Shown here: positions 497 to 53,045 of the stretch, one piece after another
How the letters are laid out: each line of letters begins with the position of its first letter
How positions within the stretch are numbered: position 1 is the first letter of the stretch
DNA from: Cellvibrionales bacterium
GTDB taxonomy: Bacteria > Pseudomonadota > Gammaproteobacteria > Pseudomonadales > UBA7239
Length of the DNA stretch: 64,000 nt
Direction: 5' to 3'
Assembly: GCA_016713115.1 (NCBI GenBank)
Contig: JADJPU010000001.1
Span: 923,762 to 987,761 of the forward strand
The notes under the pieces: model-generated
What the model was told of the DNA's origin: nothing
Databases searched by the model: none
Seen by the model: only the letters and a program-made list of their open reading frames with translations
Made by a program: the position numbers and the translations under genes

Positions 497-2075
497 TCAC
501 ACGCCATCGTATTGCGCGTAGTACGCCGCAAGATAGTCTTCAAAACTTTGCGCTACCGGCTCTGCCTCCGCCGCACTCTGTTGTTGTGAAGAGGCTTGTG
601 CCATATCAACAAAATAGTTCTGTTGTTCTTCTGACAGCGTCTGCGTAGAAAAATAGTTGGCGTGCTGTTGCGCCAATTCACCAGTCAATTGGAAGAATGA
701 TTTTTCAGACGCGCGCATATCCTGCAACACGCGCGCAGAAGTTGTGAGTTGGTTGTCTCGCAGTTTTTGGTATTGCAAGTCCACGCTATTACTGTAATGC
801 GTGGTTTCGTAGGCGTGATCCAGCAACTGTGCACTCTGTGAAATTTCATCTTGCATCTGCAGTGCCCACTGCAACACGCTACGCTGCTCGCCACCCACTT
901 CCAGCAGCAAACTGGGATCGCGGCCGCGCTCTACCACCGCCGCCTGATTGCGCGCCAATTGCACATATTCTTCTTCGTCGGTGAGCGGGCTATCGCTCAG
1001 CAAACACCACAACAAAAACACTTCAATAGACATCCATCCCCAAAGGTAAATACGGATCCAGATCCAAACAGCGCACTTCGATGTATTCCACACCGCGCTC
1101 ATGCAGGGCGCGGATTGGTGTTTCACCGGATCGCACCACACGCTTGGGACGAATGGTGCTGTAAAACTCGTTTTCGATCTGCAACAAACTGGTGCTGAGT
1201 TGTCGATAGTGACCATCAGCATCACGCACACCGATTTTTTCATACGGCGCGTAAGGCGTTATCAAACCTTTTTTTAGCGTTTGAATATAACTGGGCAAAC
1301 CGTTGTAGCACACCATCAAAGCGGCTTGCGCATCGCTTTGATAGCCCAGGCCACCCATGCGCAAAGAAGTAGCAAATGGCAAATGCAAACTATTACCACT
1401 GCCATCAAACGACGCCAGATGATGTTGGCGTTCTTGCACAAAGCTGGCACACAGCGCCGGTGACGCACCAAATAAATACAACAACAACCATAAGTGACGG
1501 CGAAAATTTCGAATCAAATCAAAATAGCGGCGCGTTTTAAAATCTTGTAACGCGCCGTTGTTGCCTTCTTGTTGTTGCAAAAATACCCAAAACGCATCGG
1601 AAAACGAAACATTGTAATGAATGCCGGCAATCGCCTGCATGCTTCTACCGTAGCGATGTCCTAAGCCTTCGCGATACGCCGTTTTCATGCGTGCAGTATG
1701 TGTGCTGCCGTATTGCGCCAAAGGAATGCTGTTATCACCGCCCAACACACAAGGCATGCTGGCGGGCCAAATTTTTTCGTTCTGCTGTTGCAATACGCTG
1801 TTGGTATAAACATGTATGCGCTGCAGCCACGCCAACGCCTCTTCCATCGTATTGCACGCCGGCGTAATAAACTCTAACAAGGCTTCGGAAAAATCGGTGG
1901 TGATATTGGGATGTTTGAGCGCAGAACCCAAAGCGGCGGGATGCGCTGTCTGCGCCAAGCTTCCATCTGGCGTAACGCGCAGACTTTCTTTTTCGATACC
2001 GCGCCGTATACCGCGCAGCAGTTGATAGCGATCGCCTTGCTGCAACGCAGAAAAACGCTGTTCAAAAATACTCAT
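497..2075 (-). pseudogene. gshA: glutamate--cysteine ligase (GshA); reading frame broken near nt 1023-1045 as assembled
   Basis: ORF 1023..2075 (350 aa: MSIFEQRFSAL..., ...SEALLEFITP..., ...VEYIEVRCLDLDPYLPLG) matches the N-terminal two thirds of E. coli-type GshA and stops at TGA 1023-1025. The missing C-terminal third (...IEVFLLWCLLSDSP... to the end) continues in the frame of ORF 497..1243. Removing one base (for example from the C4 run 1038-1041) fuses them into about 525 aa. Confidence 0.85.
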
Positions 2076-6240: not shown

Positions 6241-8073
6241 ATGTCCACCGCACACCCGATCGAAAAGCTGCGCAACGTCGCCATCATTGCCCACGTTGAC
6301 CACGGCAAAACCACGCTGGTGGATAAGTTGCTGAAACAATCTGGCACGCTCGACCGCCGCAGCCAAGAGGCGGAGCGCGTGATGGACAGCAACGATCAGG
6401 AGAAGGAGCGCGGCATCACCATCCTCGCCAAAAACACTGGCGTGGATTGGAACGGCTACCGCATCAATATCGTGGACACCCCTGGGCACGCCGATTTCGG
6501 CGGCGAAGTGGAGCGCGTGTTGTCGATGGTGGATTCTGTGCTGCTCTTGGTCGATGCCTTCGACGGCCCCATGCCGCAGACGCGCTTCGTGACCAAGAAA
6601 GCCTTTGAACACGGCCTGAAGCCCATCGTGGTGATTAACAAAGTGGATCGCCCTGGCGCGCGCCCACACTGGGTAATGGATCAAGTGTTTGAATTGTTTG
6701 ACAAATTGGGCGCGACCGACGAGCAGCTCGACTTCCCTGTGATCTACGCCTCCGCCCTGAACGGCGTGGCCGGCTTGGAAGTGGACGCGCTGGCCGACGA
6801 CATGACCCCGCTGTTCCAGATGATTGTGGATCGCGTGCCGCAACCGGACGTGGATCTCGACGGCGCTTTCCAAATGCAAATCTCGGCGCTGGATTACAAC
6901 TCTTATGTAGGCGTTATCGGCATCGGACGCATCAAGCGCGGCAAAATCAAGCCCGGCTCGCAAGTCAAAATCATCAACATCGACGGCAAAGTGCGCCAAG
7001 GCAAATTGCTGCAAGTGATGGGGCATTTGGGCTTGGAGCGCGTGGAAGTGGAAGAAGCCACCGCGGGCGATTTGGTGTGCATCACTGGCCTCGACCAACT
7101 GAATATTTCCGACACCATCTGCCAAGTGGATGCCGTGGAAGCGCTGCCGCCGTTGGTGGTGGATGAGCCCACGGTGAGCATGACTTTCCAAGTCAACAAC
7201 TCGCCCTTCGCCGGTAAAGACGGCAAGTTTGTCACCAGCCGCAACATCAAAGAGCGTTTAGAGCGCGAGCTGTTGCACAATGTGGCGCTGCGCGTGGCGG
7301 AAGGCGACAGCCCCGACAAATTTATTGTGTCCGGTCGCGGTGAATTGCATCTTTCGGTGTTGATTGAAAGCATGCGCCGCGAAGGTTTTGAACTCGGGGT
7401 GTCGCGCCCCGAAGTCGTGACCAAAGAAGTGAACGGCGAAACACACGAGCCGTTTGAAGTGGTGGTGATTGATGTGGAAGAACAGCATCAAGGACCGATC
7501 ATGGAAGAGATGGGTCGCCGCAAAGCCGAATTAAAAAACATGGAAATCGACGGCAAAGGTCGCGTGCGTTTGGAATACCTCGCACCCTCGCGCGGCTTGA
7601 TCGGTTTCCGCAACAGCTTCCTCACCATGACTTCCGGCTCCGGCATCATGACTTCAGTGTTCGATCACTACGGCCCCGCCAAAGCGGGCGACTTGGGCGG
7701 ACGCGTCAACGGCGTGTTGGTGTCGATGACGCCAGGCAAAACTCTCGCTTACGGTTTGTTCAGTTTGCAAGATCGCGGGCGCTTATTTATTGACCCGAAT
7801 GTGGATGTGTACGAAGGACAAATTGTCGGCCTGCATTCGCGCGACAACGACCTCGTCGTCAATCCTACGAAGGCAAAACAGCTCACCAATATTCGCGCCG
7901 CCGGCACCGATGAAGCGCTGATTCTCACACCGCCGATTCGTCACTCGCTGGAACAGGCGCTGGAATTTATCGAAGACGACGAGCTGGTGGAAGTGACGCC
8001 AAACTTTATTCGTCTGCGCAAAAAATTGCTGACAGAAAACGAAAGAAAACGCGCGGGTAGTAAGAAAAGCTAA
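6241..8073 (+). CDS. typA: translational GTPase TypA/BipA
   Basis: 610 aa. G-motifs [17 protein letters not shown] and NKVD, with an EF-G-like domain order. A perfect TATAAT lies at 6202-6207 upstream. Confidence 0.95.
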
Positions 8074-9260
8074 GCGAGAAAGTTTTTCACCTTCTCCGCC
8101 TGCACCATGCAGTCCTTGTAGCCATGGTGCATCAGCTCCTCGCAATAAGAGGATTCAAACAGCAGATAACTGGCGATACTGGCGCCGCCCGATGGCCGGG
8201 TAGCACCTATCGTCTTGAGAAATAATCGCAAAGATTTTGGCAAACTACCAATGTGTTTGGCGGCAATTTCGTCAAAGTGCACGCTAGGCGAAATCACCAA
8301 GGTCTCTACTGCGCGCACATGAAGATTGCGCTGTTTTTCTTCACTGAAATCGCGCACAAAATCATTGAAACGATTCATCATATTGATGTCTTCTTCCATC
8401 GAATCAACAAATGCACTGTTCAACATCTGTGCAAAAATTTGCGCAATGGAGGGGGAGAACACTTTGTTATTGCGATTAATCTCCAGATGACCAAGGTTTC
8501 TTCTGCCACTGACACCGATCACCAGAATTTTTTCTGCACCCAAATGCAATGCTGCGCTCATGGGAGAAGATTGACGCATCGCGCCGTCGCCAAAAAATTC
8601 GCGGTGAATATGCACGGCTGGGAATAATGCAGGCAGAGCGGAAGATGCCATTAAATGTTTGTGTGTAATATCTTCGCGCAAACCAATGCGATGAATGCGA
8701 TGCCAGTTTTCAATCTCTTGGCTGCCTTGAAAAAAACTGATGCTCTGACCACTGTGATAACCCATAGCGGTGATACACAGGGCGCGCAAATAGCCGCTTT
8801 GAATTAATTCCGGCAGAAATTGCAGATCGATATTTTCTAGCAACAAGTGATACAGCGGCATGTTGTCGAACAGCGACAGCGGCCTGCCGAAAGTGATACC
8901 ACTGCGAAAAAAGGACAATAGCAATTTCAGTGAGCTGCCCAGTAATTCGCCATAGCCAATATGCACCACCTTTTCTGCGTGCAAGTTACCCCAAATGTTT
9001 TCTAGCTTGCTGATTCCTTGCGCAAAATGATCGGCTTGCGTTGCCAACATCGCCGCGTTGATGGCGCCGGCAGAAGTGCCGCAAATAATCGGAAAAGGGT
9101 TCGCGCAAGCCGGCGGCAATATTTCGGCAATTGCTTTCATTACACCCACTTGGTAAGCCGCACGCGCGCCACCGCCCGACAATACCAACGCTGCCTGTGC
9201 AGGAATATTGCAGGCCTCCATGCTGACGGGTTCAACAACTGCGTTGGCTGTTTTAATCAC
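8070..9260 (-). CDS. patatin-like phospholipase (RssA-like)
   Basis: Oxyanion loop LSGGGARAAY, catalytic GTSAG and a downstream DGA(M) aspartate motif. A GTG start at 9260 overlaps the upstream TGA (GTGA). An alternative ATG lies at 9221. Confidence 0.85.
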   Translation of the reverse strand: MIKTANAVVEPVSMEACNIPAQAALVLSGGGARAAYQVGVMKAIAEILPPACANPFPIICGTSAGAINAAMLATQADHFAQGISKLENIWGNLHAEKVVHIGYGELLGSSLKLLLSFFRSGITFGRPLSLFDNMPLYHLLLENIDLQFLPELIQSGYLRALCITAMGYHSGQSISFFQGSQEIENWHRIHRIGLREDITHKHLMASSALPALFPAVHIHREFFGDGAMRQSSPMSAALHLGAEKILVIGVSGRRNLGHLEINRNNKVFSPSIAQIFAQMLNSAFVDSMEEDINMMNRFNDFVRDFSEEKQRNLHVRAVETLVISPSVHFDEIAAKHIGSLPKSLRLFLKTIGATRPSGGASIASYLLFESSYCEELMHHGYKDCMVQAEKVKNFLA

Positions 9261-12200
9261 AATTTTGTTTCACTCACGGTTGTTGCCGCTGCTTTGTTGT
9301 TGCGCGGCAATGTACTGCGCCACAGCTCACCGCTGCTAAAACACTGCCAACCCCAGCGGCACCACGCCATCATAGAGAACACCAACCACAGCGACCACAA
9401 CAGCATGGCCGCGCGGTACACCCACATCGGCACCGAGACTACCCACGCCTGCGGCAGTACCGCGCCGCGATCTTGATACCACAACAGTTGACTGATCGTG
9501 GATTGATTGCCCACAACTTGCATCTCTGGCGAAGACAGCAGGCTGGCGGGGATAGTGCCTACCAAACTGCCCAGTGCCAGCACGCTCAGAATCACCAAAA
9601 CCACCTGCGTCAGTTGCAGATTACCGCAGCTCCAGCCAGCGGTGTTTGCCTTGCGCCGGTATGCCATAGCCACAAACCACGCCACCACCAACACGCTGCC
9701 CACGGCATTGACCGTACTCATACCCAACCCCAACAACACCCACTGCCAAGTAGCCACGGGCGTGACGCCGCTGCGACCGAGCACTATCGCCACCAACACC
9801 ATCACCGTTAACACACCCCAGTACAACAGCGCGGGACCCATCAATGGGCCGCCCACCGCCAACAACCAGCGACCCTCCGGCATCTGCACACTGAGCTGGA
9901 TATTGTTGAGCGGCTCGTGGAGCTGCGGTTGCGGTGTGGTGATACGCCAGCCCATGTCCGTTTCTTGTCGCCAGCTCACATCCAGCCGCTGACTGCCTGG
10001 GTGCAGGGGCAGTTTCAGTTGTGCATCAGGCAGAGCCGGATTGCTCTGCTCCACGCCGTCTATCGCCACCCGCTGCAATTTGGCACCGACGGGCAAGCTC
10101 AGCGGCAATTCGCCGCCCTGACTGCTGCGCACTTGCAGGCTTAGGCTCGTATCCACCGAACGCGCACCTGGGCGGTAATCCAAATTCACCGACTCCACTG
10201 TGCGCGTGCTGCCTGCCACACCCTGCGGTCTGCTGATCTCGGCACTCAAGCTTTCGCCCGGCCACGGTTGCCACACAGGCATAACGGCACTGGCGCTCTC
10301 TTGTTTGACAGGGTTCAAACCACTGAACGCCACATGCCAGATCGGGGCGATATCCCACTGCCACACCTCGATCCACGACACCGCTTTCGCCGCCGTCAAG
10401 TTCAGAGTTGCCGCTGGCTTGAGCGTCGCCGTCCAAGAGAAGGTCTGGGCGTCGGGCGCGATCACCACCTGCACGAGACCGTCGCGCACAACCACGCCGT
10501 CCGTGAGAACGGCCTCGCTGAGTAGCAAAGGAATGGCGAGATTGATTGCACCCACAGCGGGTGCAATGCGCTCCACCGTGGTTTGCACCTGCCAATCCAA
10601 CCCCAACATCAAGCGCCGCGTGACGCGCACAAAAGGCGGTGCCGTATCTGGAAGTAAGCGCGCACTCTCGTTGCCTGCTTTTTCTGTTGGGGCATTGCGC
10701 GACAACTGCAAGCTATTGCCTGGGATGCGCCCCTCGCTCAAACCGGAGATTTGCCAACCCTCGGCACTGGCGCTGATGTTATGTGCCGACATAGAGAAAG
10801 GCAGTTGCAGGGCATCGCCCGCCACTTCGCCTTCCAGCACCACACTGTGGCTGCCCGCCGTCACAGCCAACCACAGATGCCCATTTTCATCGCGACGCAG
10901 GCGCTGTGTGGGCATGCCGTCCACCAACACCGCGCGCGGTTGCCACTGCTCCGCCGCTGGCAGCGGCACGGCGACCTCAATTTGTGCATCAATTTGCAAC
11001 TGGATACGCAGGACATTGCCACTGATCTGCACCTGCCCGCGATTCAGAGCCGCACACTGCGGCGCACAATCAGGCGCGCGCGTGAGGCGCTGCTCCAATT
11101 CATCCAACATCGCTTTGCTAGGGAAAGCGGCATTGGTCTCTTGCGCCCACACCGGCTGGCCTTGCAGCAACAAACCCGCCAGCAACAGCACCGGTGCCAC
11201 CGCTTTGCTCGCCGCGAGTTTGCGCCAAGCCGCGTTCGGCCACGCAGCGCGCAATAGCAACAACGCAAAGGCAAATGCTAACAACACTGAAGCCAAACGC
11301 CATATTTTATGAAGTATTGGCGATAGTAAGTACAAACGCACAGTTTGATCTTGCAGCACGGGACCGCTCCAATACAGGCTGACCGTCTGCCAGCGCCACG
11401 CCGGTTCGCCAGGGCCAGTTTGCACTTGCGCACTGGGGTCGTAGCCGCTGCTAGGCTCCTGCGCTGGCTTGGTCGCACGCTTCATCTTGCTGGGATAATC
11501 GGCGCTCTCTGCTCTGCGAACCGCCGGCGCCGCTGCAGGTATGGCTTCCATGGCAACTTGCGCACCGCCCACCATATCGTCTGCCACTTGCATCGCCGCA
11601 CCTATCACACCGCTCTGTGTCTGTGCACCACCCTGCTGAATCGTCGCGGCGCGCCCCAATTCCAACTGCGGATAGATAGCGCTGCGCGCCTGCTCCACGG
11701 CGAAGTTCAGCAACAGCAAGGTCAGCAACAGCAACACCACGCTGTTGACTGCAGCGATCACCTGCCGGAAGCGCCCCGCCGGCAGCGCGCGCAACAAGCC
11801 CGTGCCGATCAAAGCAGCCAACCACAGAAACACAGGTGCCTGCCCTGCATGATAAGTGAGCATCAGCGCCAACAAAGCCACCACACCACCACCGACACCG
11901 AGCAACCGCCAACTGGCTGCCGCCACAATCAGCACCAAAAAAATTGCCCACAAATTCCAACGCGCCAACCACGAGCCAGCGGCGCTGTCGGCGCCCTCGG
12001 CGTGCAGCAACAGCCAGCCGGGGGGCAGGTACAAATTGGCGGATACGCTGTTCATCTCGCGCTGCCAAGCAGTGATGGGAATAGCTGTGAACTGCGCCAA
12101 ACGGCTGACACTGAGCAGATTCAAAGCTCCGGCACGCAACTCCACACCGGCTTCGTTTTGTTGACTGTCCAAGCGCGTCACTAGCTGCGGCTCGCCGTTT

Positions 12201-40865: not shown

Positions 40866-40894
40866 AAAAAAGGGCATCAATTGATGCCCTTTTT
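40866..40894. terminator. bidirectional rho-independent terminator between convergent genes
   Basis: Perfect palindrome AGGGCATCAATTGATGCCCT (40871-40890), flanked by an A run upstream and a T run downstream. Confidence 0.75.
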
Positions 40895-40908: not shown

Positions 40909-43900
40909 TCAGTTGCCGCTGGCGATTCTGCCGGAGATGATCTCCACAAAACCCACATCCTTGATATTCTTCAGCTTGGCTGGTTTAGCCGGGTTCTTCT
41001 GCACCCACATCTGCGTATCTGCTTTTGGCGCTGAAGTGATGATGTCGCTGTAACCATCCAAGTTCACATCACCACCGTTTGCCAAGTAGAGCCCACGGTT
41101 ATCTTTCGCGCGCACACCCAGCACCGGCTCGTCGATTGATACGCCGGTTGCGCCGTTCAACAAATATACAGCACCTGCATCTTTCAGCACTTTGCCTTTG
41201 GTTTTGGGTGGCACGGGCGGCAGCGTTCTGTCGCGGCCTGGCGCACCAGCCACCACATCCAGCTGGCCATCGTTGTCGATGTCGCCGCCGGCCGCCACGC
41301 TCCAACCCAAGCGATCACCTGCGGCTTCTCCGTTTTTCGCGAGAATACGCACACAGGGGATGCCTGCATTGACACAGGAGTAGCCGTATACCGCACCCGC
41401 CTGTTTCATCGGTTTGCCGGTAGTGACATTGGTCACGGTGTGGCGGTAAGCGCCCACGACGATATCTGCCTTGGTATCGCCGTCGAGATCGCCCGCACTG
41501 GCAACGCTATAACCAAACCAGTCACCGGCGTTTTCACCACTGACACGCACCCACTCGGTGCCGTCAGCGCCCGAGTACACCACGGCGGCACCTGCGTCTT
41601 TCTTACCGGCAACATCTGCTTTTGGCAAGCCAACCAGCACATCTGCATGACCGTCACCATCTACATCTCCGGCACCTGCAACCGCACTGCCCAAACTGTC
41701 GCCAGCGGTGTCGCCGCTGATAGGGAACAACGAGGAAGCAACATCGCAGGCATTGGCACTCGAATCAACCGCTGCCGCCAAATCTGCCCCTGAACACACC
41801 AGAGCGCGACCAGCGTCTTTCAGCGGCTTGCTGTCGACAACCGCAATATCCGCTTTCGGCACACCGATCACTACATCGGGGTTGCCATCATTGTCCGTGT
41901 CGCCAGCGTTTGCCACCGACCAGCCCAAGTTGTCGCCCGCCGCCGTACCTTGCGCACTAGCCATCAGCGCGCCGGTTTGACCGTTAAACACATACACCTT
42001 GCCAGCGTCTTTCAACACTTTGATTTTACCTTCAACAGTGATGGTCACATCGGCTTTCGGAGCGCCGACGATGATATCGGCATAGCCATCATTGTTCACA
42101 TCCGCACCGGCCACGCTATAACCGAACCAGTCGTTGCTCTTCTCGCCCGTCAGCGGCGCAGCGCTAAATAGCTCGCTGCCATCGCGACCGGAGTACACAT
42201 ACACACGACCGGCAGATTTCAGCTTTTTGGTGCTCGGGGGCAAGGGTTTATCCCACAGATGGGCGCCAACCACGACATCATTGATGCCATCGTTGTCCAC
42301 ATCACCGGCATTGGCCACTGAGATGCCGAAGGTGTCTTTCTTAAACTCGCCCCATTTGCGCATCAACACACCAGGATCCGCGTCATAAGGATCCGCATCG
42401 CAGGCATCACCTACACCGTCACCGTCCGTGTCTTTCTGATCTGCATTAGCAACAGCAGGACAGTTGTCTGCGTTGTCACCTACACCATCGCCATCATCGT
42501 CGGTAGTTTCGGTAGGGTCATTCGGGAACGCATCGCAATCGTCGCCCACGCCATCGCCATCCGTATCAGTCTGTGCAGGGTTGGATACCGCTGGGCAGTT
42601 GTCGGTCGCGTTGTCCACGCCATCGCCGTCGGTATCACCCGTTGGCGTGCTGTCGCAAGCGTCGCCCGTGCCGTCACCGTCGGTGTCGGTCTGTGTTGGG
42701 TTCGCGACCGCTGAGCAGTTGTCGGCATTTTCATCCACGCCGTCACCGTCGGTGTCGCCGTTCGGGGTGCTGTCGCACGCGTCGCCCGTGCCATCGCCAT
42801 CGGTGTCAGTCTGGGCAGGGTTTGCGACCGCCGGGCAGTTGTCGGTGGCGTTGTCTACGCCGTCACCGTCGGTGTCGCCGGTTGGGGTCGTGTCACAGGC
42901 ATCGCCAATCGTGTCACCGTCGGCATCTTCTTGACCAGGGTTTGCTACTGCTGGGCAGTTGTCCGTCGCGTTGTCCACGCCGTCACCGTCGGTGTCGCCG
43001 GTCGGGGTCGTGTCGCAAGCATCACCAATCGTGTCACCGTCGGCATCTTCTTGACCAGGGTTTGCTACTGCTGGGCAGTTGTCGGTGGCGTTGTCTACGC
43101 CGTCACCGTCGGTGTCGCCGGTTGGGGTCGTGTCACAGGCATCGCCAATCGTGTCACCGTCGGCATCTTCTTGACCAGGGTTTGCTACTGCTGGGCAGTT
43201 GTCCGTCGCGTTGTCCACGCCGTCACCGTCGGTGTCGCCGGTCGGGGTCGTGTCGCAAGCATCACCAATCGTGTCACCGTCGGCATCTTCTTGACCAGGG
43301 TTTGCTGCTGCTGGGCAGTTGTCCGTCGCGTTGTCCACGCCGTCACCGTCGGTGTCGCCGTTCGGGGTGCTGTCGCACGCGTCACCGGTGCCATCGCCGT
43401 CGGTGTCGGTCTGCGTTGGGTTGGAGACCGCTGGGCAGTTGTCGGCATTTTCATCCACGCCGTCACCGTCGGTGTCGCCGTTCGGGGTGCTGTCGCACGC
43501 GTCACCGGTGCCATCGCCGTCGGTGTCGGTCTGCGTTGGGTTCGCGACCGCTGGGCAGTTGTCGGCATTTTCATCCACGCCGTCACCATCGGTGTCGCCG
43601 TTCGGGGTGCTGTCGCACGCGTCACCGGTGCCATCGCCGTCGGTGTCGGTCTGCGTTGGGTTCGCGACCGCTGGGCAGTTGTCGGCATTTTCATCCACGC
43701 CGTCACCATCGGTGTCGCCGTTCGGGGTGCTGTCGCAGGCATCGCCCACGCCATCACCATCGGTGTCGGTCTGGGTCGGGTTCGCGACTGCTGGGCAGTT
43801 GTCGGCATTTTCATCCACGCCGTCGCCGTCAGTATCGCCGTTCGGGGTGCTGTCGCAGGCATCGCCCACGCCATCACCATCGGTGTCGGTCTGGGTTGGG

Positions 43901-46900
43901 TTCGCGACCGCTGGGCAGTTATCGGCATTTTCATCCACGCCGTCGCCGTCGGTATCGCCGTTCGGGGTGGTATCACAGGCATCGCCCGTGCCATCACCGT
44001 CGGTGTCGGTCTGGGTCGGGTTCGCGACTGCTGGGCAGTTGTCAGCATTGTTGTCGACACCATCACCGTCGGTATCACCGTTCGGTGTACTGTCGCAGGC
44101 GTCACCGATGCCGTCCAGATCCGTGTCTTCTTGCAGCGGATTTGCCACAGCCGGACAGTTGTCTGACAGGTTATCAATGCCATCACTGTCGGTATCACCG
44201 TTCGGTGTACTGTCGCAGGCGTCACCGATGCCATCCGCGTCGGTATCAGTTTGCGTCGGGTTCGCAATCAGCGGACAGTTGTCACTCAAATTATCCACGC
44301 CGTCAGAATCGGTATCACCATTCGGTGTACTGTCGCAGGCGTCACCGATGCCGTCCACGTCGGTATCAGTTTGCGTCGGGTTCGCAATCAGCGGACAGTT
44401 GTCACTCAAATTATCCACGCCGTCAGAATCGGTATCACCATTCGGTGTACTGTCGCAGGCGTCACCGATGCCGTCCACGTCGGTATCAGTTTGCGTCGGG
44501 TTCGCAATCAGCGGACAGTTGTCACTCAAATTATCCACGCCGTCAGAATCGGTATCACCATTCGGTGTACTGTCGCAGGCGTCACCGATGCCGTCCACGT
44601 CGGTATCAGTTTGCGTCGGGTTCGCAATCAGCGGACAGTTGTCACTCAAATTATCCACGCCGTCAGAATCGGTATCACCGTTCGGTGTGGAGTCACACGC
44701 GTCACCGATACCGTCCAGATCCGTATCTTCCTGCAATGGATTCGCGATCAGCGGACAGTTGTCGCTGTTGTTATCGATGCCATCAGAATCGGTATCACCA
44801 TTCGGTGTCGAGTCACACGCGTCACCGATGCCGTCCACGTCGGTATCAGTTTGCGTCGGGTTCGCAATCAGCGGACAGTTATCTGTATTGTTATCAATGC
44901 CATCACCGTCGGTATCGCCATTCGGTGTCGAGTCGCACGCGTCACCGATACCATCGGCATCGGTATCTTCTTGCAGCGGATTCGCGACAGCCGGACAGTT
45001 GTCTGACAGGTTATCAATGCCATCACTGTCGGTATCACCGTTCGGTGTACTGTCGCAGGCGTCACCGATGCCATCCGCGTCGGTATCGGTCTGCGTCGGG
45101 TTCGCAATCAGCGGACAGTTGTCTGACAGGTTATCAATGCCATCACCATCGGTGTCACCGTTCGGCGTGCTGTCGCAGGCGTCACCGATGCCATCCGCGT
45201 CGGTATCGGTCTGCGTCGGGTTCGCAATCAGCGGACAGTTGTCTGACAGGTTATCAATGCCATCACCATCGGTGTCACCGTTCGGCGTGCTGTCGCAGGC
45301 GTCACCGATGCCATCCGCGTCGGTATCGGTCTGCGTCGGGTTCGCAATCAGCGGACAGTTGTCTGACAGGTTATCAATGCCATCACCATCGGTGTCACCG
45401 TTCGGCGTGCTGTCGCAGGCGTCACCGATGCCATCCGCGTCGGTATCGGTCTGCGTCGGGTTCGCAATCAGCGGACAGTTGTCTGACAGGTTATCAATGC
45501 CATCACCATCGGTGTCACCGTTCGGCGTGCTGTCGCAGGCGTCACCGATGCCATCCGCGTCGGTATCGGTCTGCGTCGGGTTCGCAATCAGCGGACAGTT
45601 GTCTGACAGGTTATCAATGCCATCACCATCGGTGTCACCGTTCGGCGTGCTGTCGCAGGCGTCACCGATGCCATCCGCGTCGGTATCGGTCTGCGTCGGG
45701 TTCGCAATCAGCGGACAGTTGTCTGACAGGTTATCAATGCCATCACCATCGGTGTCACCGTTCGGCGTGCTGTCGCAGGCGTCACCGATGCCATCCGCGT
45801 CGGTATCGGTCTGCGTCGGGTTCGCAATCAGCGGACAGTTGTCTGACAGGTTATCAATGCCATCACCATCGGTGTCACCGTTCGGCGTGCTGTCGCAGGC
45901 GTCACCGATGCCATCCGCGTCGGTATCGGTCTGCGTCGGGTTCGCAATCAGCGGACAGTTGTCTGACAGGTTATCAATGCCATCACCATCGGTGTCACCG
46001 TTCGGCGTGCTGTCGCAGGCGTCACCGATGCCATCCGCGTCGGTATCGGTCTGCGTCGGGTTCGCAATCAGCGGACAGTTGTCTGACAGGTTATCAATGC
46101 CATCACCATCGGTGTCACCGTTCGGCGTGCTGTCGCAGGCGTCACCGATGCCATCCGCGTCGGTATCGGTCTGCGTCGGGTTCGCAATCAGCGGACAGTT
46201 GTCTGACAGGTTATCAATGCCATCACCATCGGTGTCACCGTTCGGCGTGCTGTCGCAGGCGTCACCGATGCCATCCGCGTCGGTATCGGTCTGCGTCGGG
46301 TTCGCAATCAGCGGACAGTTGTCTGACAGGTTATCAATGCCATCACCATCGGTGTCACCGTTCGGCGTGCTGTCGCAGGCGTCACCGATGCCATCCGCGT
46401 CGGTATCGGTCTGCGTCGGGTTCGCAATCAGCGGACAGTTGTCTGACAGGTTATCAATGCCATCACCATCGGTGTCACCGTTCGGCGTGCTGTCGCAGGC
46501 GTCACCGATGCCATCCGCGTCGGTATCGGTCTGCGTCGGGTTCGCAATCAGCGGACAGTTGTCTGACAGGTTATCAATGCCATCACCATCGGTGTCACCG
46601 TTCGGCGTGCTGTCGCAGGCGTCACCGATGCCATCCGCGTCGGTATCGGTCTGCGTCGGGTTCGCAATCAGCGGACAGTTGTCTGACAGGTTATCAATGC
46701 CATCACCATCGGTGTCACCGTTCGGCGTGCTGTCGCAGGCGTCACCGATGCCATCCGCGTCGGTATCGGTCTGCGTCGGGTTCGCAATCAGCGGACAGTT
46801 GTCTGACAGGTTATCAATGCCATCACCATCGGTGTCACCGTTCGGCGTGCTGTCGCAGGCGTCACCGATGCCATCCGCGTCGGTATCGGTCTGCGTCGGG

Positions 46901-48003
46901 TTCGCAATCAGCGGACAGTTGTCTGACAGGTTATCAATGCCATCACCATCGGTGTCACCGTTCGGCGTGCTGTCGCAGGCGTCACCGATACCATCCGCAT
47001 CGGTATCTTCCTGCAACGGATTCGCGACAGCCGGACAGTTGTCTGACAGGTTATCAATGCCATCACCATCCGTATCGCCATTCGGTGTCGAGTCACACGC
47101 GTCACCGATACCATCCGCATCGGTATCTTCCTGCAATGGATTCGCAACGAGCGGACAGTTGTCACTAGCATCGGCAATGCCATCACTGTCGGTATCTGGC
47201 GTTAATGTACCTGTCAGGAAAACGCCTTGATCGGCTGCTTCAGCCGGATCACAGTCAATGGATGAGCCCTGATCTGCCAGACCACCCACCCAGCACACGG
47301 AATCATTGGCAAAAGCACCACCACGGATGTGGGTGTCGATGTCATACGAAATAGTGAACTGCAAAGTAGCCGGGCCATTACCGGTAACAACAGCGCTATT
47401 GTTCTGGTTGATTGGTGTAGTGACAGAAGTGTTAAGCACACCGGTTGTTGGCAGCGCCAGACTTCCACTATCAAGCGTATCGCCAGACAGTGAAGTGGTA
47501 ACTGCTTTAGCTTCGATTCGCCTGTTGTTGCCGCCATTATCGACAGCCTGAATAATTCCCTTACGCAGAATGCCGAGATCAAGTTTCCAGTTGCCCGAAC
47601 CGGTGATATTCACAGTCACCAGATAACTGGGCCGATAGTAAAGATTGATGTTGATAGACACTTGTGACTTGGAACGCAACTGGTTCGCGTATCGAGAAGT
47701 AAACGTAGTACCGGTAAAATTACTGCTTGTGCTGGAATTCCACTCACTCCTGCCATTGGGAACGCTGAAAGCAGAATCATCCTTCCATGTGATACCAGGG
47801 CAGGCGCCTGCTGCAGGGCAATCCGGCTCTGGCGCAGTGTTATCTCCCCACGTACCCGCTGTATTGTTTGAAATAGTGAGGCCGGTTATTGCGGGAGCGG
47901 CACTGGCTAGCGGGCTGAACGCCAGCGCCGCCAGCAGCAATATGCCGTGCAAGACTGATTGGTTTGAAATGTGCGTGTTACCGGAAAACCAGGTAAGAAT
48001 CAT
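40909..48003 (-). CDS. giant secreted Ca-binding repeat protein: signal peptide + unknown N-domain + ~40 x 40-aa thrombospondin type-3-like units + seven FG-GAP repeats
   Basis: A single 2,364-aa ORF with signal peptide ...LLLAALAFSPLASA/AP. The repeat unit is DGDGIDNLSDNCPLIANPTQTDTDADGIGDACDSTPNGDT and variants (DxDxDGxxDxxD loops plus paired Cys). The C-terminal ~480 aa hold seven FG.SVA.AGD...DG..D...GAP motifs. Confidence 0.9.
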   Translation of the reverse strand: MILTWFSGNTHISNQSVLHGILLLAALAFSPLASAAPAITGLTISNNTAGTWGDNTAPEPDCPAAGACPGITWKDDSAFSVPNGRSEWNSSTSSNFTGTTFTSRYANQLRSKSQVSININLYYRPSYLVTVNITGSGNWKLDLGILRKGIIQAVDNGGNNRRIEAKAVTTSLSGDTLDSGSLALPTTGVLNTSVTTPINQNNSAVVTGNGPATLQFTISYDIDTHIRGGAFANDSVCWVGGLADQGSSIDCDPAEAADQGVFLTGTLTPDTDSDGIADASDNCPLVANPLQEDTDADGIGDACDSTPNGDTDGDGIDNLSDNCPAVANPLQEDTDADGIGDACDSTPNGDTDGDGIDNLSDNCPLIANPTQTDTDADGIGDACDSTPNGDTDGDGIDNLSDNCPLIANPTQTDTDADGIGDACDSTPNGDTDGDGIDNLSDNCPLIANPTQTDTDADGIGDACDSTPNGDTDGDGIDNLSDNCPLIANPTQTDTDADGIGDACDSTPNGDTDGDGIDNLSDNCPLIANPTQTDTDADGIGDACDSTPNGDTDGDGIDNLSDNCPLIANPTQTDTDADGIGDACDSTPNGDTDGDGIDNLSDNCPLIANPTQTDTDADGIGDACDSTPNGDTDGDGIDNLSDNCPLIANPTQTDTDADGIGDACDSTPNGDTDGDGIDNLSDNCPLIANPTQTDTDADGIGDACDSTPNGDTDGDGIDNLSDNCPLIANPTQTDTDADGIGDACDSTPNGDTDGDGIDNLSDNCPLIANPTQTDTDADGIGDACDSTPNGDTDGDGIDNLSDNCPLIANPTQTDTDADGIGDACDSTPNGDTDGDGIDNLSDNCPLIANPTQTDTDADGIGDACDSTPNGDTDGDGIDNLSDNCPLIANPTQTDTDADGIGDACDSTPNGDTDGDGIDNLSDNCPLIANPTQTDTDADGIGDACDSTPNGDTDGDGIDNLSDNCPLIANPTQTDTDADGIGDACDSTPNGDTDSDGIDNLSDNCPAVANPLQEDTDADGIGDACDSTPNGDTDGDGIDNNTDNCPLIANPTQTDTDVDGIGDACDSTPNGDTDSDGIDNNSDNCPLIANPLQEDTDLDGIGDACDSTPNGDTDSDGVDNLSDNCPLIANPTQTDTDVDGIGDACDSTPNGDTDSDGVDNLSDNCPLIANPTQTDTDVDGIGDACDSTPNGDTDSDGVDNLSDNCPLIANPTQTDTDVDGIGDACDSTPNGDTDSDGVDNLSDNCPLIANPTQTDTDADGIGDACDSTPNGDTDSDGIDNLSDNCPAVANPLQEDTDLDGIGDACDSTPNGDTDGDGVDNNADNCPAVANPTQTDTDGDGTGDACDTTPNGDTDGDGVDENADNCPAVANPTQTDTDGDGVGDACDSTPNGDTDGDGVDENADNCPAVANPTQTDTDGDGVGDACDSTPNGDTDGDGVDENADNCPAVANPTQTDTDGDGTGDACDSTPNGDTDGDGVDENADNCPAVANPTQTDTDGDGTGDACDSTPNGDTDGDGVDENADNCPAVSNPTQTDTDGDGTGDACDSTPNGDTDGDGVDNATDNCPAAANPGQEDADGDTIGDACDTTPTGDTDGDGVDNATDNCPAVANPGQEDADGDTIGDACDTTPTGDTDGDGVDNATDNCPAVANPGQEDADGDTIGDACDTTPTGDTDGDGVDNATDNCPAVANPGQEDADGDTIGDACDTTPTGDTDGDGVDNATDNCPAVANPAQTDTDGDGTGDACDSTPNGDTDGDGVDENADNCSAVANPTQTDTDGDGTGDACDSTPTGDTDGDGVDNATDNCPAVSNPAQTDTDGDGVGDDCDAFPNDPTETTDDDGDGVGDNADNCPAVANADQKDTDGDGVGDACDADPYDADPGVLMRKWGEFKKDTFGISVANAGDVDNDGINDVVVGAHLWDKPLPPSTKKLKSAGRVYVYSGRDGSELFSAAPLTGEKSNDWFGYSVAGADVNNDGYADIIVGAPKADVTITVEGKIKVLKDAGKVYVFNGQTGALMASAQGTAAGDNLGWSVANAGDTDNDGNPDVVIGVPKADIAVVDSKPLKDAGRALVCSGADLAAAVDSSANACDVASSLFPISGDTAGDSLGSAVAGAGDVDGDGHADVLVGLPKADVAGKKDAGAAVVYSGADGTEWVRVSGENAGDWFGYSVASAGDLDGDTKADIVVGAYRHTVTNVTTGKPMKQAGAVYGYSCVNAGIPCVRILAKNGEAAGDRLGWSVAAGGDIDNDGQLDVVAGAPGRDRTLPPVPPKTKGKVLKDAGAVYLLNGATGVSIDEPVLGVRAKDNRGLYLANGGDVNLDGYSDIITSAPKADTQMWVQKNPAKPAKLKNIKDVGFVEIISGRIASGN
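42841..43320 (-). repeat. 2 x 240-nt higher-order repeat (two-unit period) of a third subtype (…DNATDNCPAVANPGQEDADGDTIGDACDTTPTGDT)
   Basis: 42841-43080 versus 43081-43320 differ at a single position (43067 a versus 43307 g). Confidence 0.9.
44281..44640 (-). repeat. 3 identical tandem copies of a second unit subtype (DSDGVDNLSDNCPLIANPTQTDTDVDGIGD...)
   Basis: Lines 44281=44401=44521 and 44341=44461=44581. Confidence 0.9.
45061..46980 (-). repeat. 16 nucleotide-identical tandem copies of the 120-nt unit (1,920 bp)
   Basis: Line pairs 45061/45121 through 46861/46921 are letter-for-letter identical on inspection. Confidence 0.9.
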
Positions 48004-48052
48004 GCTGAGCCTGCGATATCTATGCTTATCCTTTGATCATCTCACAGGCCAA

Positions 48053-48078
48053 TGTAGTGGTCAAGTAAAACCGGACAC
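48053..48078. repeat. IS terminal inverted repeat (end facing the giant gene)
   Basis: See the mobile_element entry. On the minus strand it contains TTGACC (48059-48064) pointing outward. Confidence 0.85.
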
Positions 48079-48090
48079 GGGTTTAGGTTT

Positions 48091-49235
<1,145 letters not shown>

Positions 49236-49279
49236 TATGGAGCACCTCTGTATCGGGCAGCAGTTTACTGCCCATAAGA

Positions 49280-49305
49280 GTGTCCGGAATCATTAGACCA
49301 CTACA
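49280..49305. repeat. IS terminal inverted repeat (transposase-proximal end)
   Basis: See the mobile_element entry. Confidence 0.85.
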
Positions 49306-49375: not shown

Positions 49376-51715
49376 TTATTGTCGGGCAGACTGCAGGTGC
49401 TGGGCCAATGCCGATTGCAGCGCCTGTTTCAAACTTTTTCCGCTGAGCGGTTTGTACAGTGCGCGTTGAATACCGACATTTTCTAGCGCTTGTTTGCTCG
49501 GCGCGCGGCTCACACCCGTCAGCATCATCATGATCATTTTTTTGCTGTTGATCTTTTGATCTTCACGAATATGCGCCGCAACTTCCAAACCATTCATCAT
49601 CGGCATTTCAAAGTCAATTAACGCAATATCAAACAACTCATCGGTATTGGTATGTGAACGCAAAATCGCCAATGCTTCTGTGCCGCCATGCGCGGACTGG
49701 ACAATCATGCCCCACTGCGTGGCTTGCTGCTCAACAATGGAACAATAGGTCACATTGTCATCCACAATTAACAAACGCCGTCCCTGTAGCGACAAAGCAT
49801 CCTCTGTTGGATGTGCCGGACTGGAATGTACATCCAACGGCAAACTGAACTCAATAATTGCGCCACCATTAGCGAACAATTGCATGTTGAATTTTCCACC
49901 CATCAGATACAAATATTGCTCTGCAATAGTTAAATTGAGGTTATCACTGGAGTGCAGTTCTCGCGTGCGGGCAGCATGATGACGATCCATTAATGTGTTC
50001 TGGTCGGAGTGAATTTCAAACAAAATTTGATTGTCCTCCACAGTCTTCGCACTCAGCACCACTTCGCCTTGCTCAACATTGCGCAGTGCAAATTGCAGCA
50101 AATTAACAATGACATGCTGTATTTTTTCCTGATCGCCTTTTACGAAACCAACAATACTGCTGTCGATATGATAAATAAGCTCGACCTTGCCAACTTCAGC
50201 GCGACCACGGCAGTTTTCAACGCATGATTCAATCAATCCCGTCAACTCAAAAGGCGCACTATTCACATCCACATTGCCGCGCTCAATGGAAGATAAATCC
50301 GACAATCTGTTTGTAACATCCAACAACATTAAGCCAGAGTTATGGATGGTTTTTATTTGGTTGCGTTGTTGATCGGTCATATTGCCGGACATCAACAAAT
50401 CAGCCATTCCCAACACCCCGCTGATCGGTGTGCGCAATTCATGACAAATATCTGACAGATTGACCAATGTGCGAACTTCGATTTTCTTTTCCTCAACTGC
50501 AGGAGACCGCTCCGCCTTATCACGCAGCCTTTCAGCACGGTACGCCATTGTAGAAATGAACATTACCAGCGTTTCAAAAATAATGGTCGCCGCCACACCC
50601 CAAGAAGAAAAGGCTCCCTGCGGCAACAAGCCATTCACATTAAAAATAGCGATTAATGCTACGCAGGCCGTTATCGCACGTACCACAATAAAATGGCGCG
50701 CCAACACATATTCCTCCATGTTGGCATGCAATGCGACGCCAAAAATAAAAATTACACCAAATGAGGCAAGAACAGAGGCCATCACCGCACTGATATGTGG
50801 CGGAATAAACCAATTGACAATAGCTCCGATCAAATTCAGTACAGCAACCGTTGTGAGCACATGGTGCTGCCACGGCACGCGTTTGCGCGTTTTCATCAAA
50901 CTCTGCACATACAGCGAGCCAAACACCCCCACTAAAAAAACAGGGGTTGTGATTTGATGATCCAGCAACACTTCACTACTATCAAACCATGGCAACCAAT
51001 AGCCGTGCCATGCCATCTGAATAGCTGCCATGGACAACAAAACAAAACCATTCCACAAAAACGCACGGAATCGATAAACAGCGAAAGCACCAAAATGCAC
51101 CAACGCCAAAAATAACAGTCCGCCCAGCAGAAAACCCTGCCACCATTCCTGTTGACTCACTGTTGTAATGTATTCATGCGGCGTGCTGAGTAGCAGCTGT
51201 ACATTGACCGCTTTGTCAGACTCCACGCGCACAAAATAGGTATAGGCCGCGTGCCCAGCAATATCCAAATTAAACAAACTGATGGGATAGTTGTATGCGC
51301 GATCCGTGTACGGTGTGGCTGATCCTAATTTGCTGTGTTTGTGCAGCTGTCCTGTTTGCGAGTCGATAACATAGAGATCGACATAATCGATATCAGCGGG
51401 CGAAGCTTCCAGAATGAAGCGCATTTCTTCGTCGCGCTGATTTTCTATCGTAAAGCGCAACCAATACGCCGAGGTGGTGTAACCGAAATACAACTCCGCC
51501 ATAGACGCTGGCGAAAACTGATACGCATAGCGATCAGAAACCACATCATCAATGGTGAGGTCGCCACTTTTATCTTCCAGCACATCAATATAAGGCGATA
51601 GCGGCAACCGCACCGCATCGCTGTTAATTTCCACCAGCGGCGCCGCGATCAACGATTGAGAAAACAACATCCAAACAACAACTGCAAACCACGGTATGCA
51701 ATGTTTCATAGCCAT
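49376..51715 (-). CDS. hybrid sensor histidine kinase/response regulator with periplasmic domain + 7 TM (7TMR-DISM, LadS/RetS-like architecture)
   Basis: Signal peptide (…VVVWMLFSQSLIAAPL), a ~160-aa periplasmic domain, seven hydrophobic segments, H-box ICHELRTPISGVLG, a degenerate CA domain, and a receiver (LLIVDDN...ALIDFEMPMMNG...YKPLS). Start chosen at ATG 51715; the track ORF extends to 51799 and overlaps purD. Confidence 0.8.
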   Translation of the reverse strand: MAMKHCIPWFAVVVWMLFSQSLIAAPLVEINSDAVRLPLSPYIDVLEDKSGDLTIDDVVSDRYAYQFSPASMAELYFGYTTSAYWLRFTIENQRDEEMRFILEASPADIDYVDLYVIDSQTGQLHKHSKLGSATPYTDRAYNYPISLFNLDIAGHAAYTYFVRVESDKAVNVQLLLSTPHEYITTVSQQEWWQGFLLGGLLFLALVHFGAFAVYRFRAFLWNGFVLLSMAAIQMAWHGYWLPWFDSSEVLLDHQITTPVFLVGVFGSLYVQSLMKTRKRVPWQHHVLTTVAVLNLIGAIVNWFIPPHISAVMASVLASFGVIFIFGVALHANMEEYVLARHFIVVRAITACVALIAIFNVNGLLPQGAFSSWGVAATIIFETLVMFISTMAYRAERLRDKAERSPAVEEKKIEVRTLVNLSDICHELRTPISGVLGMADLLMSGNMTDQQRNQIKTIHNSGLMLLDVTNRLSDLSSIERGNVDVNSAPFELTGLIESCVENCRGRAEVGKVELIYHIDSSIVGFVKGDQEKIQHVIVNLLQFALRNVEQGEVVLSAKTVEDNQILFEIHSDQNTLMDRHHAARTRELHSSDNLNLTIAEQYLYLMGGKFNMQLFANGGAIIEFSLPLDVHSSPAHPTEDALSLQGRRLLIVDDNVTYCSIVEQQATQWGMIVQSAHGGTEALAILRSHTNTDELFDIALIDFEMPMMNGLEVAAHIREDQKINSKKMIMMMLTGVSRAPSKQALENVGIQRALYKPLSGKSLKQALQSALAQHLQSARQ

Positions 51716-51752
51716 ATCCGGCAAGGCCGCTCCTTGATGAATTCCTGTTTCG

Positions 51753-53045
51753 TCAGACCTCAGTGCTTGCGCGTTCGCGCGCAATCGCACGCCAACCAAT
51801 ATCCCTGCGCATGAACATGCCGTCCCAACGAATCCCGTCTGCCAGATGGTACGCAGTCTGCTGCGCCTCGGCTACTGTTTGTCCCAAAGCCGTGGCACAC
51901 AATACGCGGCCACCCTGTGTGACCACCGCGCCGTCTTTCATTGCCGTACCGGCATGAAAGACCTTGGCGTTCGCCACCGCAGTAGCCAAACCTTGGATCA
52001 CTGCGCCTTTAGCCACATCGCCCGGATAACCACCCGCAGCCAATACTACGCCCAATGCAGGGCGTGGATCCCATTCCGCCTGTGCTTTATCCAGCTGCCC
52101 TGCCAATGCTTGTTCTACCAAAACCGGCAATGAGGTTTGCAAGCGCAACATGATCGGCTGGGTTTCTGGGTCGCCAAAACGGCAATTGAATTCGATCACT
52201 TTCGGCGCGCCGCTGTCATCAATCATCAAGCCTGCGTATAAAAAGCCGGTGTAAGTGTGGCCTTCTGCCGCCATACCACGCACGGTGGGTTCGATTACTT
52301 CGCGCATCACACGCTCATGCACAGCAGGCGTAACCACGGGCGCTGGCGAATAAGCGCCCATGCCGCCGGTGTTGAGGCCGGTATCGCCCTCGCCTACGCG
52401 TTTGTGATCTTGACTGGTCGCCATCGGCAGTGCCGTTTTGCCATCCACCATCACAATAAAACTGGCCTCTTCGCCGGCGAGAAACTCTTCCACCACCACG
52501 CGCGCGCCGGCAGTGCCAAATTTGTTGTCAGCCAACATATCGCGCACCGCGTCTTCAGCTTCTGCCAGCGACATTGCCACAATCACGCCTTTGCCCGCCG
52601 CCAAACCATCAGCTTTGATAACAATCGGCGCGCCCTTTTCGCGCACATAGGCTAGCGCAGCATCCACTTCCGTAAACACCGCATAAAACGCCGTGGGAAT
52701 GTTATGGCGCGCGAGAAAATCTTTGGCAAAGGCTTTGGAGCCTTCCAATTGCGCAGCGTATTGCGTAGGGCCAAAAATTTTTAATCCGGCTGCACTAAAC
52801 GCATCCACCACGCCATTTACCAGCGGCGCTTCTGGACCAACGATCGTGAGATCCACATTCTCTTTGGCAAACGCAAGTAATGCATTGTTATCCAAAATAT
52901 TCAACGCAATATTTTCACATTTGTTTTCTGTGGCGGTACCCGCATTGCCCGGCGCAACAAACACTTTTGTGATGCGCGCATCTTGCGCACATTTCCACGC
53001 CAGCGCGTGTTCGCGGCCACCAGAGCCAAGAATTAAAATTTTCAT
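51753..53045 (-). CDS. purD: phosphoribosylamine--glycine ligase
   Basis: MKILILGSGGREHALAWK..., an ATP-grasp core, 430 aa. Confidence 0.95.
   Translation of the reverse strand: MKILILGSGGREHALAWKCAQDARITKVFVAPGNAGTATENKCENIALNILDNNALLAFAKENVDLTIVGPEAPLVNGVVDAFSAAGLKIFGPTQYAAQLEGSKAFAKDFLARHNIPTAFYAVFTEVDAALAYVREKGAPIVIKADGLAAGKGVIVAMSLAEAEDAVRDMLADNKFGTAGARVVVEEFLAGEEASFIVMVDGKTALPMATSQDHKRVGEGDTGLNTGGMGAYSPAPVVTPAVHERVMREVIEPTVRGMAAEGHTYTGFLYAGLMIDDSGAPKVIEFNCRFGDPETQPIMLRLQTSLPVLVEQALAGQLDKAQAEWDPRPALGVVLAAGGYPGDVAKGAVIQGLATAVANAKVFHAGTAMKDGAVVTQGGRVLCATALGQTVAEAQQTAYHLADGIRWDGMFMRRDIGWRAIARERASTEV

Follow-up and report, generated by a model that had tools for sequence, protein, structure and literature searches.

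How does a bacterial gene come to carry 16 copies of a 120-nt sequence, head to tail and without a single substitution, and what does such a tract mean for the encoded protein? The question is raised by a giant gene in a 64,000-nt stretch of the assembly of a Cellvibrionales bacterium (GCA_016713115.1, contig JADJPU010000001.1, positions 923,762 to 987,761; Pseudomonadales), to which we refer as the window. The gene is read from the reverse strand and encodes a signal peptide, an N-terminal domain (N-domain) of ~235 aa, 40 thrombospondin type 3 units (TSP3; Pfam family TSP_3) and a C-terminal FG-GAP propeller. The identical copies lie among the TSP3 units, and we consider it probable (roughly 0.8) that they go back to a young tandem amplification, specific to this lineage, of a single TSP3 unit of 40 residues; the protein concerned is Sec-exported, strongly acidic and 236 kDa in size, and the unit belongs to its TSP3 stalk.

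An identical block within a diverged array

An earlier note on this DNA had described 16 nucleotide-identical tandem copies, and an exact string search confirmed them: the copies, which represent the antisense of the coding sequence, start at 45061, 45181 and so on to 46861 (45061-46980) and show zero substitutions. Strict identity at a period of 120 nt extends little further than this 16-copy core (45050-46989, 16.17 periods), and the whole block lies inside the open reading frame (ORF) of the giant gene. Tandem Repeats Finder returns a single array of period 120 (42542-47163), with the perfect block as the core of 39-40 units. Read in coding phase (DNCP...), the block consists of 15 full identical units together with 66 nt of the preceding and 74 nt of the following unit, and the order of units in the array, with letters for the units, is A B C(x15) D E F G H H H D I J K L M M N O P O P Q R S.

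Because the other distinct units differ pairwise by ~10-50 of 120 nt, 15 consecutive neighbours with zero differences cannot be attributed to chance. Across 21 distinct units, the proportions of synonymous (pS) and nonsynonymous (pN) differences are 0.61 and 0.14, respectively (pN/pS 0.23), compared to zero differences within the block. To judge from these values, the distinct units are old, protein-constrained paralogs under purifying selection. Given such paralogs elsewhere in the array, the copies in the block, identical even at synonymous sites, must have originated recently from a common source.

How the block arose is suggested by its edges. Over positions 0-73, unit C matches the following unit D (unit 18) perfectly, and over positions 54-119 it does so with the preceding unit B (unit 2); these chimeric edges explain the length of the perfect run exactly (66 + 15x120 + 74 = 1940 nt), while the units flanking the block keep their own differences (13 and 5 mismatches). 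Since unit C thus joins the 5' part of D to the 3' part of B, unequal recombination or slippage is indicated. In the course of events that we propose, the adjacent units B and D would have paired out of register, either in unequal sister-chromatid recombination or in replication slippage, and the first exchange would have yielded a D-5'/B-3' junction unit (A B D E -> A B [D5'/B3'] D E). More out-of-register exchange within the growing perfect tract would then have raised the number to about 16 copies; as the molecular mechanism, we infer RecA-dependent exchange or slippage. Each 120-nt unit encodes one Cys pair and two DxDxDG motifs, so that gain or loss of units would keep both the frame and the modular fold, and the tract would behave as an in-frame variable-number tandem repeat (VNTR). 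The array as a whole would form a Ca2+-loaded spacer, in which the number of units tunes the distance between N-domain and propeller (reach) or the calcium capacity, although this functional effect is a conjecture.

Beyond the main block, the array contains two shorter perfect runs and a two-unit duplication (Table 1). Furthermore, units 18 and 25 (45004-45123 and 44164-44283) are only 2 nt apart in sequence, with an exact match of 101 nt, while lying 840 nt (7 units) apart in position, which may be the trace of an older duplication of 7 units or of a conversion event.

Length variation in relatives and competing explanations

Scans of genomes and metagenomes with the N-domain returned 5 loci only, all of which, except for a Pseudomonadales metagenome-assembled genome (MAG; L001), end at or near the array start and therefore give no copy numbers. 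The short-read metagenome contigs among the relatives (L002-L005) end at or just within the array, and the array thus breaks short-read assemblies; one further contig (L006) extends over ~8 units of the array and contains a frameshift. A search with the C-terminal region of the protein plus its 90% cluster identified four long metagenome contigs from the Joint Genome Institute (L007-L010, 145-808 kb), all of which span the whole locus.

These four contigs are 96.5-97.2% identical to the window in the flanks and 98.5% identical over the C-terminal 1455 nt of the gene; on these values, they belong to the same species as the window. Compared among each other, they are 100% identical over 830 nt and 1455 nt of unique sequence of the gene and 99.99-100% identical over 9 kb downstream. 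The spans of their arrays are 35.6, 31.5, 34.7 and 33.6 units, compared to 39.1 units in the window. Unit C of the window is missing from all four arrays, the nearest unit being at least 18 of 120 mismatches away. Instead, each of the four harbors a perfect block of another 120-mer, with runs of 8.37, 16.5 (with one single-nucleotide polymorphism), 7.29 and 10.59 units; this 120-mer ('M' block) differs by 2 nt from units 30/31 of the window, where the run amounts to 2.24 units. A division of the units of these contigs into 'M' and 'm' types was discarded as an artefact of a greedy threshold, as direct comparison revealed a single 120-mer. It should be noted that a global alignment of the relatives' arrays is ambiguous within the repeats and shows just that the differences stay inside the array.

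More distant relatives extend this range. L001, which shares the neighbours and the architecture of the window locus while its flanks are ~79-80% identical at the nucleotide level, has 21 DNCP motifs, and each of its units differs from the amplified one at 24 or more of 120 positions; L006 likewise lacks both the block and its unit. A 986-aa protein (P0003) with 53% identity in the N-domain has the same order of N-domain, TSP_3 and FG-GAP, with 6 Pfam stretches, or about 8 units by eye. The array of L001 (10841-13191) contains no adjacent identical units; its units 2-4, however, recur with 0 mismatches as units 11-13, at a distance of 1080 nt, and units 15 and 17 are identical to each other. 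In view of these exact higher-order duplications, the array also evolves via multi-unit duplication.

So, different units have been amplified in different sub-lineages, one block ranging from 2 to 16 copies, and the array changes much faster than point substitutions accumulate. Two proposals of the earlier note are thereby supported. Recent amplification is in agreement with a pS of 0.61 among the other units compared to zero in the block as well as with the lack of the block in four same-species contigs, and a change of length in steps of 40 aa is reflected in spans of 31.5-39.1 units within the species, in the shorter tracts of L001 (21 DNCP motifs) and P0003 (6-8 units) and in the one block that varies between 2.2 and 16.5 copies. 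A third proposal, that the locus is contingency-like, stands only in the loose sense of an in-frame VNTR. Contingency loci in the strict sense are short simple-sequence tracts (repeats of 1-8 nt), and a change in their length shifts the frame or the spacing of a promoter and thereby turns expression on or off, whereas the unit here is 120 nt long and in frame, and its gain or loss would alter the length of the protein rather than its expression.

Several points weigh against a young amplification, and most of them concern the assemblies. The exact number of 16 and the absolute lack of variants could reflect assembly or polishing of near-identical copies, so that the array would be real and its copy number and/or perfect identity a product of the assembler or of short-read polishing. 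The short-read contigs of relatives that stop at or just inside the array are in line with this explanation, as is the state of the long contigs L007-L010. The latter are gap-free, and their perfect blocks are clean; the diverged parts of their arrays (~6340-10700 per locus) contain dozens of small indels, so that neighbouring units are 117-122 nt apart and the genes are called in pieces. A mixture of strains or difficulties in polishing the repeats could be the cause; part of the apparent array diversity may thus be consensus noise, and details outside the perfect runs may be unreliable. Moreover, the window contains at least one housekeeping gene with a broken frame: gshA (glutamate-cysteine ligase, 497-2075, reverse strand) is spread over two overlapping frames near 1023-1243; its Pfam match breaks off at position 335 of the 372 in the profile, and another frame holds the continuation with the conserved ...VFLLWC... 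motif. Either an indel was left in the assembly or gshA is a pseudogene here, and the split agrees with a remark of the earlier note on indels elsewhere in the assembly.

Nevertheless, we regard an assembly or polishing artefact as unlikely. The ORF is open over all 7095 nt, the block ends cleanly in chimeric junctions while the flanking units retain their mismatches, and perfect blocks of 7-16 copies occur elsewhere in the array in four independent assemblies. Together, these features argue that the multi-copy perfect block is real. In addition, the gshA indel and the contiguity over 64 kb, across an insertion sequence (IS) element and the 4.7-kb array where short-read assemblies stop, point to a long-read assembly, which suggests that the 1.9-kb block could be spanned by reads and that a spanning estimate of its copy number is plausible.

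Gene conversion offers a further explanation, in which an old array would be held identical by continuous conversion (concerted evolution) with a roughly stable copy number. Conversion tracts spreading outward from an older block could equally leave the chimeric edges described above, and such leakage would fit flanking units that match the core unit in part; the purifying selection on the TSP3 units is in line with this explanation as well. However, both the block and its unit are absent from four contigs of the same species, from L001 and from L006, and close relatives have anywhere between 2.2 and 16.5 copies of the 'M' block, so that copy number is not stable. We therefore consider concerted evolution distinctly improbable. 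Two reservations about the amplification and its consequences are of another kind: the length variation is so far a difference between contigs, and no anchor domain was found in the giant protein by Pfam or NCBIfam, with a C-terminus (...VEIISGRIASGN) that lacks a hydrophobic tail, so that an effect on stalk length or reach is conjectural.

The encoded protein and its upstream region

Table 1. Positions of the giant gene, of the parts of its product and of neighbouring elements in the window.
Feature	Position	Strand	Description
Giant gene	40909..48003	-	Intact 7095-nt ORF; 2364 aa, 236 kDa, pI about 4; from translation, Pfam and composition
Signal peptide, aa 1-35	47899..48003	-	...LLLAALAFSPLASA/AP; from translation and comparison with the L007 allele, putative cleavage site
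N-terminal domain, aa 36-270	47194..47898	-	Beta-sandwich; very small unnamed family
TSP_3 array	42349..47163	-	39 in-register units of 120 nt/40 aa and one offset terminal unit
Perfectly periodic block	45050..46989	-	1940 nt; 15 full coding-phase units and the shared parts of units 2 and 18
Second young amplification	44238..44679	-	442 nt perfectly periodic, 3.68 units; units 22-24
Third perfect run	43469..43737	-	269 nt, 2.24 units; units 30-31; unit amplified 7-16 times in L007-L010
Two-unit duplication, period 240	42833..43306	-	Units 33-36
FG-GAP, integrin-alpha-like beta-propeller region	40912..42363	-	Pfam; PDB integrin matches
Terminator-like hairpin	40867..40894	-	12-bp stem and T run, 15 nt past the stop codon
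IS3-family insertion sequence	48053..49305	-	1253 nt, 26-nt inverted repeats, 3-bp TTG target duplication; 50 nt upstream of the start codon
Hybrid promoter-like site	48036..48064	-	-35 TTGACC in the IS end, 17 nt from a TG-extended -10 GATGAT in native DNA; consensus match only
7TMR-DISM (DISMED2) hybrid sensor kinase	49376..51799	-	Conserved upstream neighbour

For the 2364-aa protein, a look-up of the exact sequence returned no record. The mature form has a mass of 233 kDa and a pI of about 4, and the TSP_3 array consists of 25% Asp with a single basic residue. The array matches Pfam TSP_3 (PF02412) with 1419.9 bits (cut-off 25) in 40 stretches, and its units follow the consensus DNCp..aNP.Q.DtD.Dg.GDACDsTPnGDTDgDG.Dn.. 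in a strict register of 40 aa. With two Cys and two DxDxDG per unit, the whole array amounts to 80 of each. Three units were matched to type-3 repeats of known structure, namely COMP (3fby, E 7e-45), TSP-2 (1yo8, 1e-43) and, more weakly, a bacterial OmpA-family protein (5wtl, 8e-7). As in thrombospondins and in the TSP3 repeats of bacterial OmpA, each 40-aa unit would bind Ca2+ and be stapled by a disulfide; for the OmpA repeats, intra-repeat disulfide-dependent Ca binding has been reported (cited in PMC12045341). The propeller region is recognized by FG-GAP (PF01839; 103.3 bits, cut-off 22.1, 6 stretches, without an explicit seventh blade) as well as FG-GAP_2, and in the PDB it matches integrin alpha5, alpha4 and alphaV (E 1.8e-22 to 1e-16).

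Two further profile matches were rejected as identities. The NCBIfam profiles for MtsC (NF047638) and for an Omp28-related selenoprotein (NF045500) matched with their TSP3 part only (positions 88-266 of 428 and 269-310 of 377, respectively) and not over the full length with the MYXO-CTERM or Omp28 part, and these matches recur 21-40 times along the protein. Long ORFs on the forward strand over the array (42573-47168 and others) were likewise dismissed, since a periodic sequence can have other frames that happen to lack stops and Pfam supports only the reverse-strand frame. The giant gene is accompanied by genes for a kinase, purD/purH, an AAA ATPase and trpE, with no genes of a type I secretion system (T1SS) nearby.

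The N-domain has no match in Pfam and belongs to a family with only 14 representatives among 1.84 billion proteins in an exhaustive search; a word-indexed search found two clusters. With an alignment of these 14 sequences, AlphaFold2 predicts an all-beta sandwich (mean confidence, pLDDT, 84), compared to a pLDDT of just 36 with a 3-sequence alignment. Foldseek found no neighbour in the PDB or BFVD with a template-modelling (TM) score above about 0.4; the best match was the beta-sandwich of Bdellovibrio Bd1399 (E 1.6e-4, TM 0.31/0.41), followed by low-probability matches resembling carbohydrate-binding modules, and a search of the N-domain profile against PDB sequences found nothing. Homologs of the N-domain (P0003-P0015) occur either alone with PEP-CTERM or fused to cadherin/BIg, DUF5122 and TSP_3, to TSP_3 and dockerin, or to DUF6701. 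The PEP-CTERM carried by some of these homologs is not present in the window protein.

The Sec-type leader, the TSP3 units with their Cys pairs, the integrin-like propeller and the architectures of the N-domain homologs establish that the giant protein is extracytoplasmic, modular and of a binding type. The surface or secreted protein anticipated before is thus backed by the signal peptide, by the two Cys per unit within the TSP_3 motif and by the PEP-CTERM anchors on N-domain homologs.

Upstream, an IS3-family element sits between the giant gene and the conserved sensor kinase gene (Table 1). The same insertion is found in L003 (95.5% identical) and L005 (99.5% identical) and is absent in L001, L002, L004 and L006-L010, and L001 and L007 show the empty site. 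A hybrid promoter may be formed by the IS end together with the native -10. The sensor kinase gene is co-oriented with and upstream of the giant gene in all relatives examined for it (L001, L002, L004 and L006-L010), and this conservation may reflect co-regulation or co-transcription that is interrupted by the IS3 element in the window. That the repeats merely drift in a decaying or silenced gene, whose protein would no longer be made or exported, is very improbable in our view: while the IS3 element lies close to the ATG and the n-region of the signal peptide (MILTWFSGNTHISNQ) contains no K or R, in contrast to relatives with R (L007 allele MLFRRAIRF...), there is no stop or frameshift over 7.1 kb, the insertion is kept in L003 and L005, its end provides a good -35 at 17 nt from a TG-extended -10, and the arrays of IS-free relatives are equally dynamic.

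The 5' end of the locus is dimorphic (window 47164-48052; L007 5395-6340; L001 9885-10840), and its relationships do not track those of the flanks. The N-terminal coding region of the window is only ~93% identical to that of L007-L010 at the nucleotide level, compared to 97% in the flanks and 98.5% in the C-terminal region, and the leader and intergenic region are of another type in the window (MILTWFSGNTHIS.., without K/R) than in L007-L010 (MLFRRAIRFSHLSRW...). Compared to L001, on the other hand, the N-domain of the window is 96.6% identical at the amino acid level, the propeller 74.7%, and the flanks only ~80% at the nucleotide level. This suggests that the 5' module may have been exchanged by recombination, perhaps with a breakpoint in the array.

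Known repeat tracts and what the locus adds

A repeat tract of variable length is well-known behaviour of big surface or secreted proteins, and the present case resembles Periscope-like or RtxA-like stalks. In Periscope Proteins (SasG, Aap, SraP, inverse autotransporters and Rib of group B Streptococcus), repeats that are identical at the DNA level and vary in number between strains are the defining trait (PMC9704523). The giant protein shares with them a single secreted or surface-exposed chain, near-identical DNA repeats, a number that varies among close strains and terminal domains separated by the tract. However, the class is defined by units of >50 residues that fold as single domains and build up a rod, whereas the unit of the giant protein has 40 aa; the repeats of Periscope Proteins are Ig-like, beta-grasp or helical globular domains, in contrast to the disulfide-stapled Ca2+ 'wire' motif found here. 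In the structures 1ux6 and 1yo8, the TSP3 motif is a Ca2+-wrapped wire and not a globular domain. Furthermore, a cell-attachment motif was not found in the giant protein, and its host is an environmental member of the Pseudomonadales and not a pathogen.

The alpha C protein of group B Streptococcus carries identical long tandem repeats that are deleted under immune pressure. Both alpha C and Rib share with the giant gene in-frame, nucleotide-identical long repeats, the number of which is changed by recombination or slippage, while differing in their Gram-positive host, LPXTG anchor and Ig-like repeats and in the selective agent, which in their case is known to be antibody.

Among giant bacterial proteins, RtxA of Legionella pneumophila strain Paris contains 30 type-a repeats, each with a TSP_3 motif, while the repeats of other strains differ in number and type (PMC2257941). 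A TSP_3-containing tandem tract that varies in number and type by strain is thus common to both proteins. However, RtxA belongs to the T1SS/RTX adhesins, contains VWA and HemolysinCabind domains and is built from far longer units, whereas the giant protein has a Sec signal peptide. Against the background of RTX/T1SS giant adhesins in general (LapA, MpIBP, RtxA), the giant protein has a Sec-type leader, no RTX repeats (no Pfam match to HemolysinCabind) and no adjacent T1SS operon. A very long tract of identical tandem repeats is also shared with region II of the ice-binding adhesin MpAFP/MpIBP from Marinomonas primoryensis, a Ca2+-rigidified extender of about 120 identical 104-residue repeats (PMC4083281); these are BIg-fold domains in an RTX adhesin, with another copy number and unit size.

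The motif itself, DxDxDGxxDxxDNCPxxxNxxQxDxDxDGxGDxCD with paired Cys, is that of thrombospondin/COMP and of the bacterial OmpA TSP3 repeats (3fby, 1yo8, 1ux6, 5wtl). Eukaryotic thrombospondins and COMP, however, have about 7 diverged repeats that are wrapped on a lectin domain, and bacterial OmpA and TraB have few TSP3 repeats as a linker, compared to 40 in the giant protein, 16 of them nucleotide-identical. Among related marine bacteria, Saccharophagus degradans was recognized long ago as having TSP3 modules in its large, acidic secreted proteins (PMC2386152).

More tentatively, and with a leaning towards doubt, the TSP3 tract could be regarded as a population-level length switch, i.e., a Gram-negative, non-Ig 'periscope' built from Ca2+-wire units, in which different units would expand into perfect blocks in different sub-lineages at rates orders of magnitude above point mutation and would tune the distance between the terminal domains or the Ca2+ load, possibly under the control of the 7TMR-DISM kinase.

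With an amplified unit that corresponds to the recombinant junction of two neighbours, the locus provides a sequence-level example of the birth of long in-frame repeat tracts, and the arrays that differ between contigs with identical surrounding gene sequence illustrate a fast turnover of the tract. As the locus breaks short-read assemblies and is split by gene callers, the family, including its N-domain, is under-represented in databases, and searches for Periscope Proteins, which address repeats of >50 aa in pathogen genomes, would miss such TSP3 proteins. The locus extends the principle of repeat stalks with variable length to TSP3 calcium-binding units in environmental Pseudomonadales.

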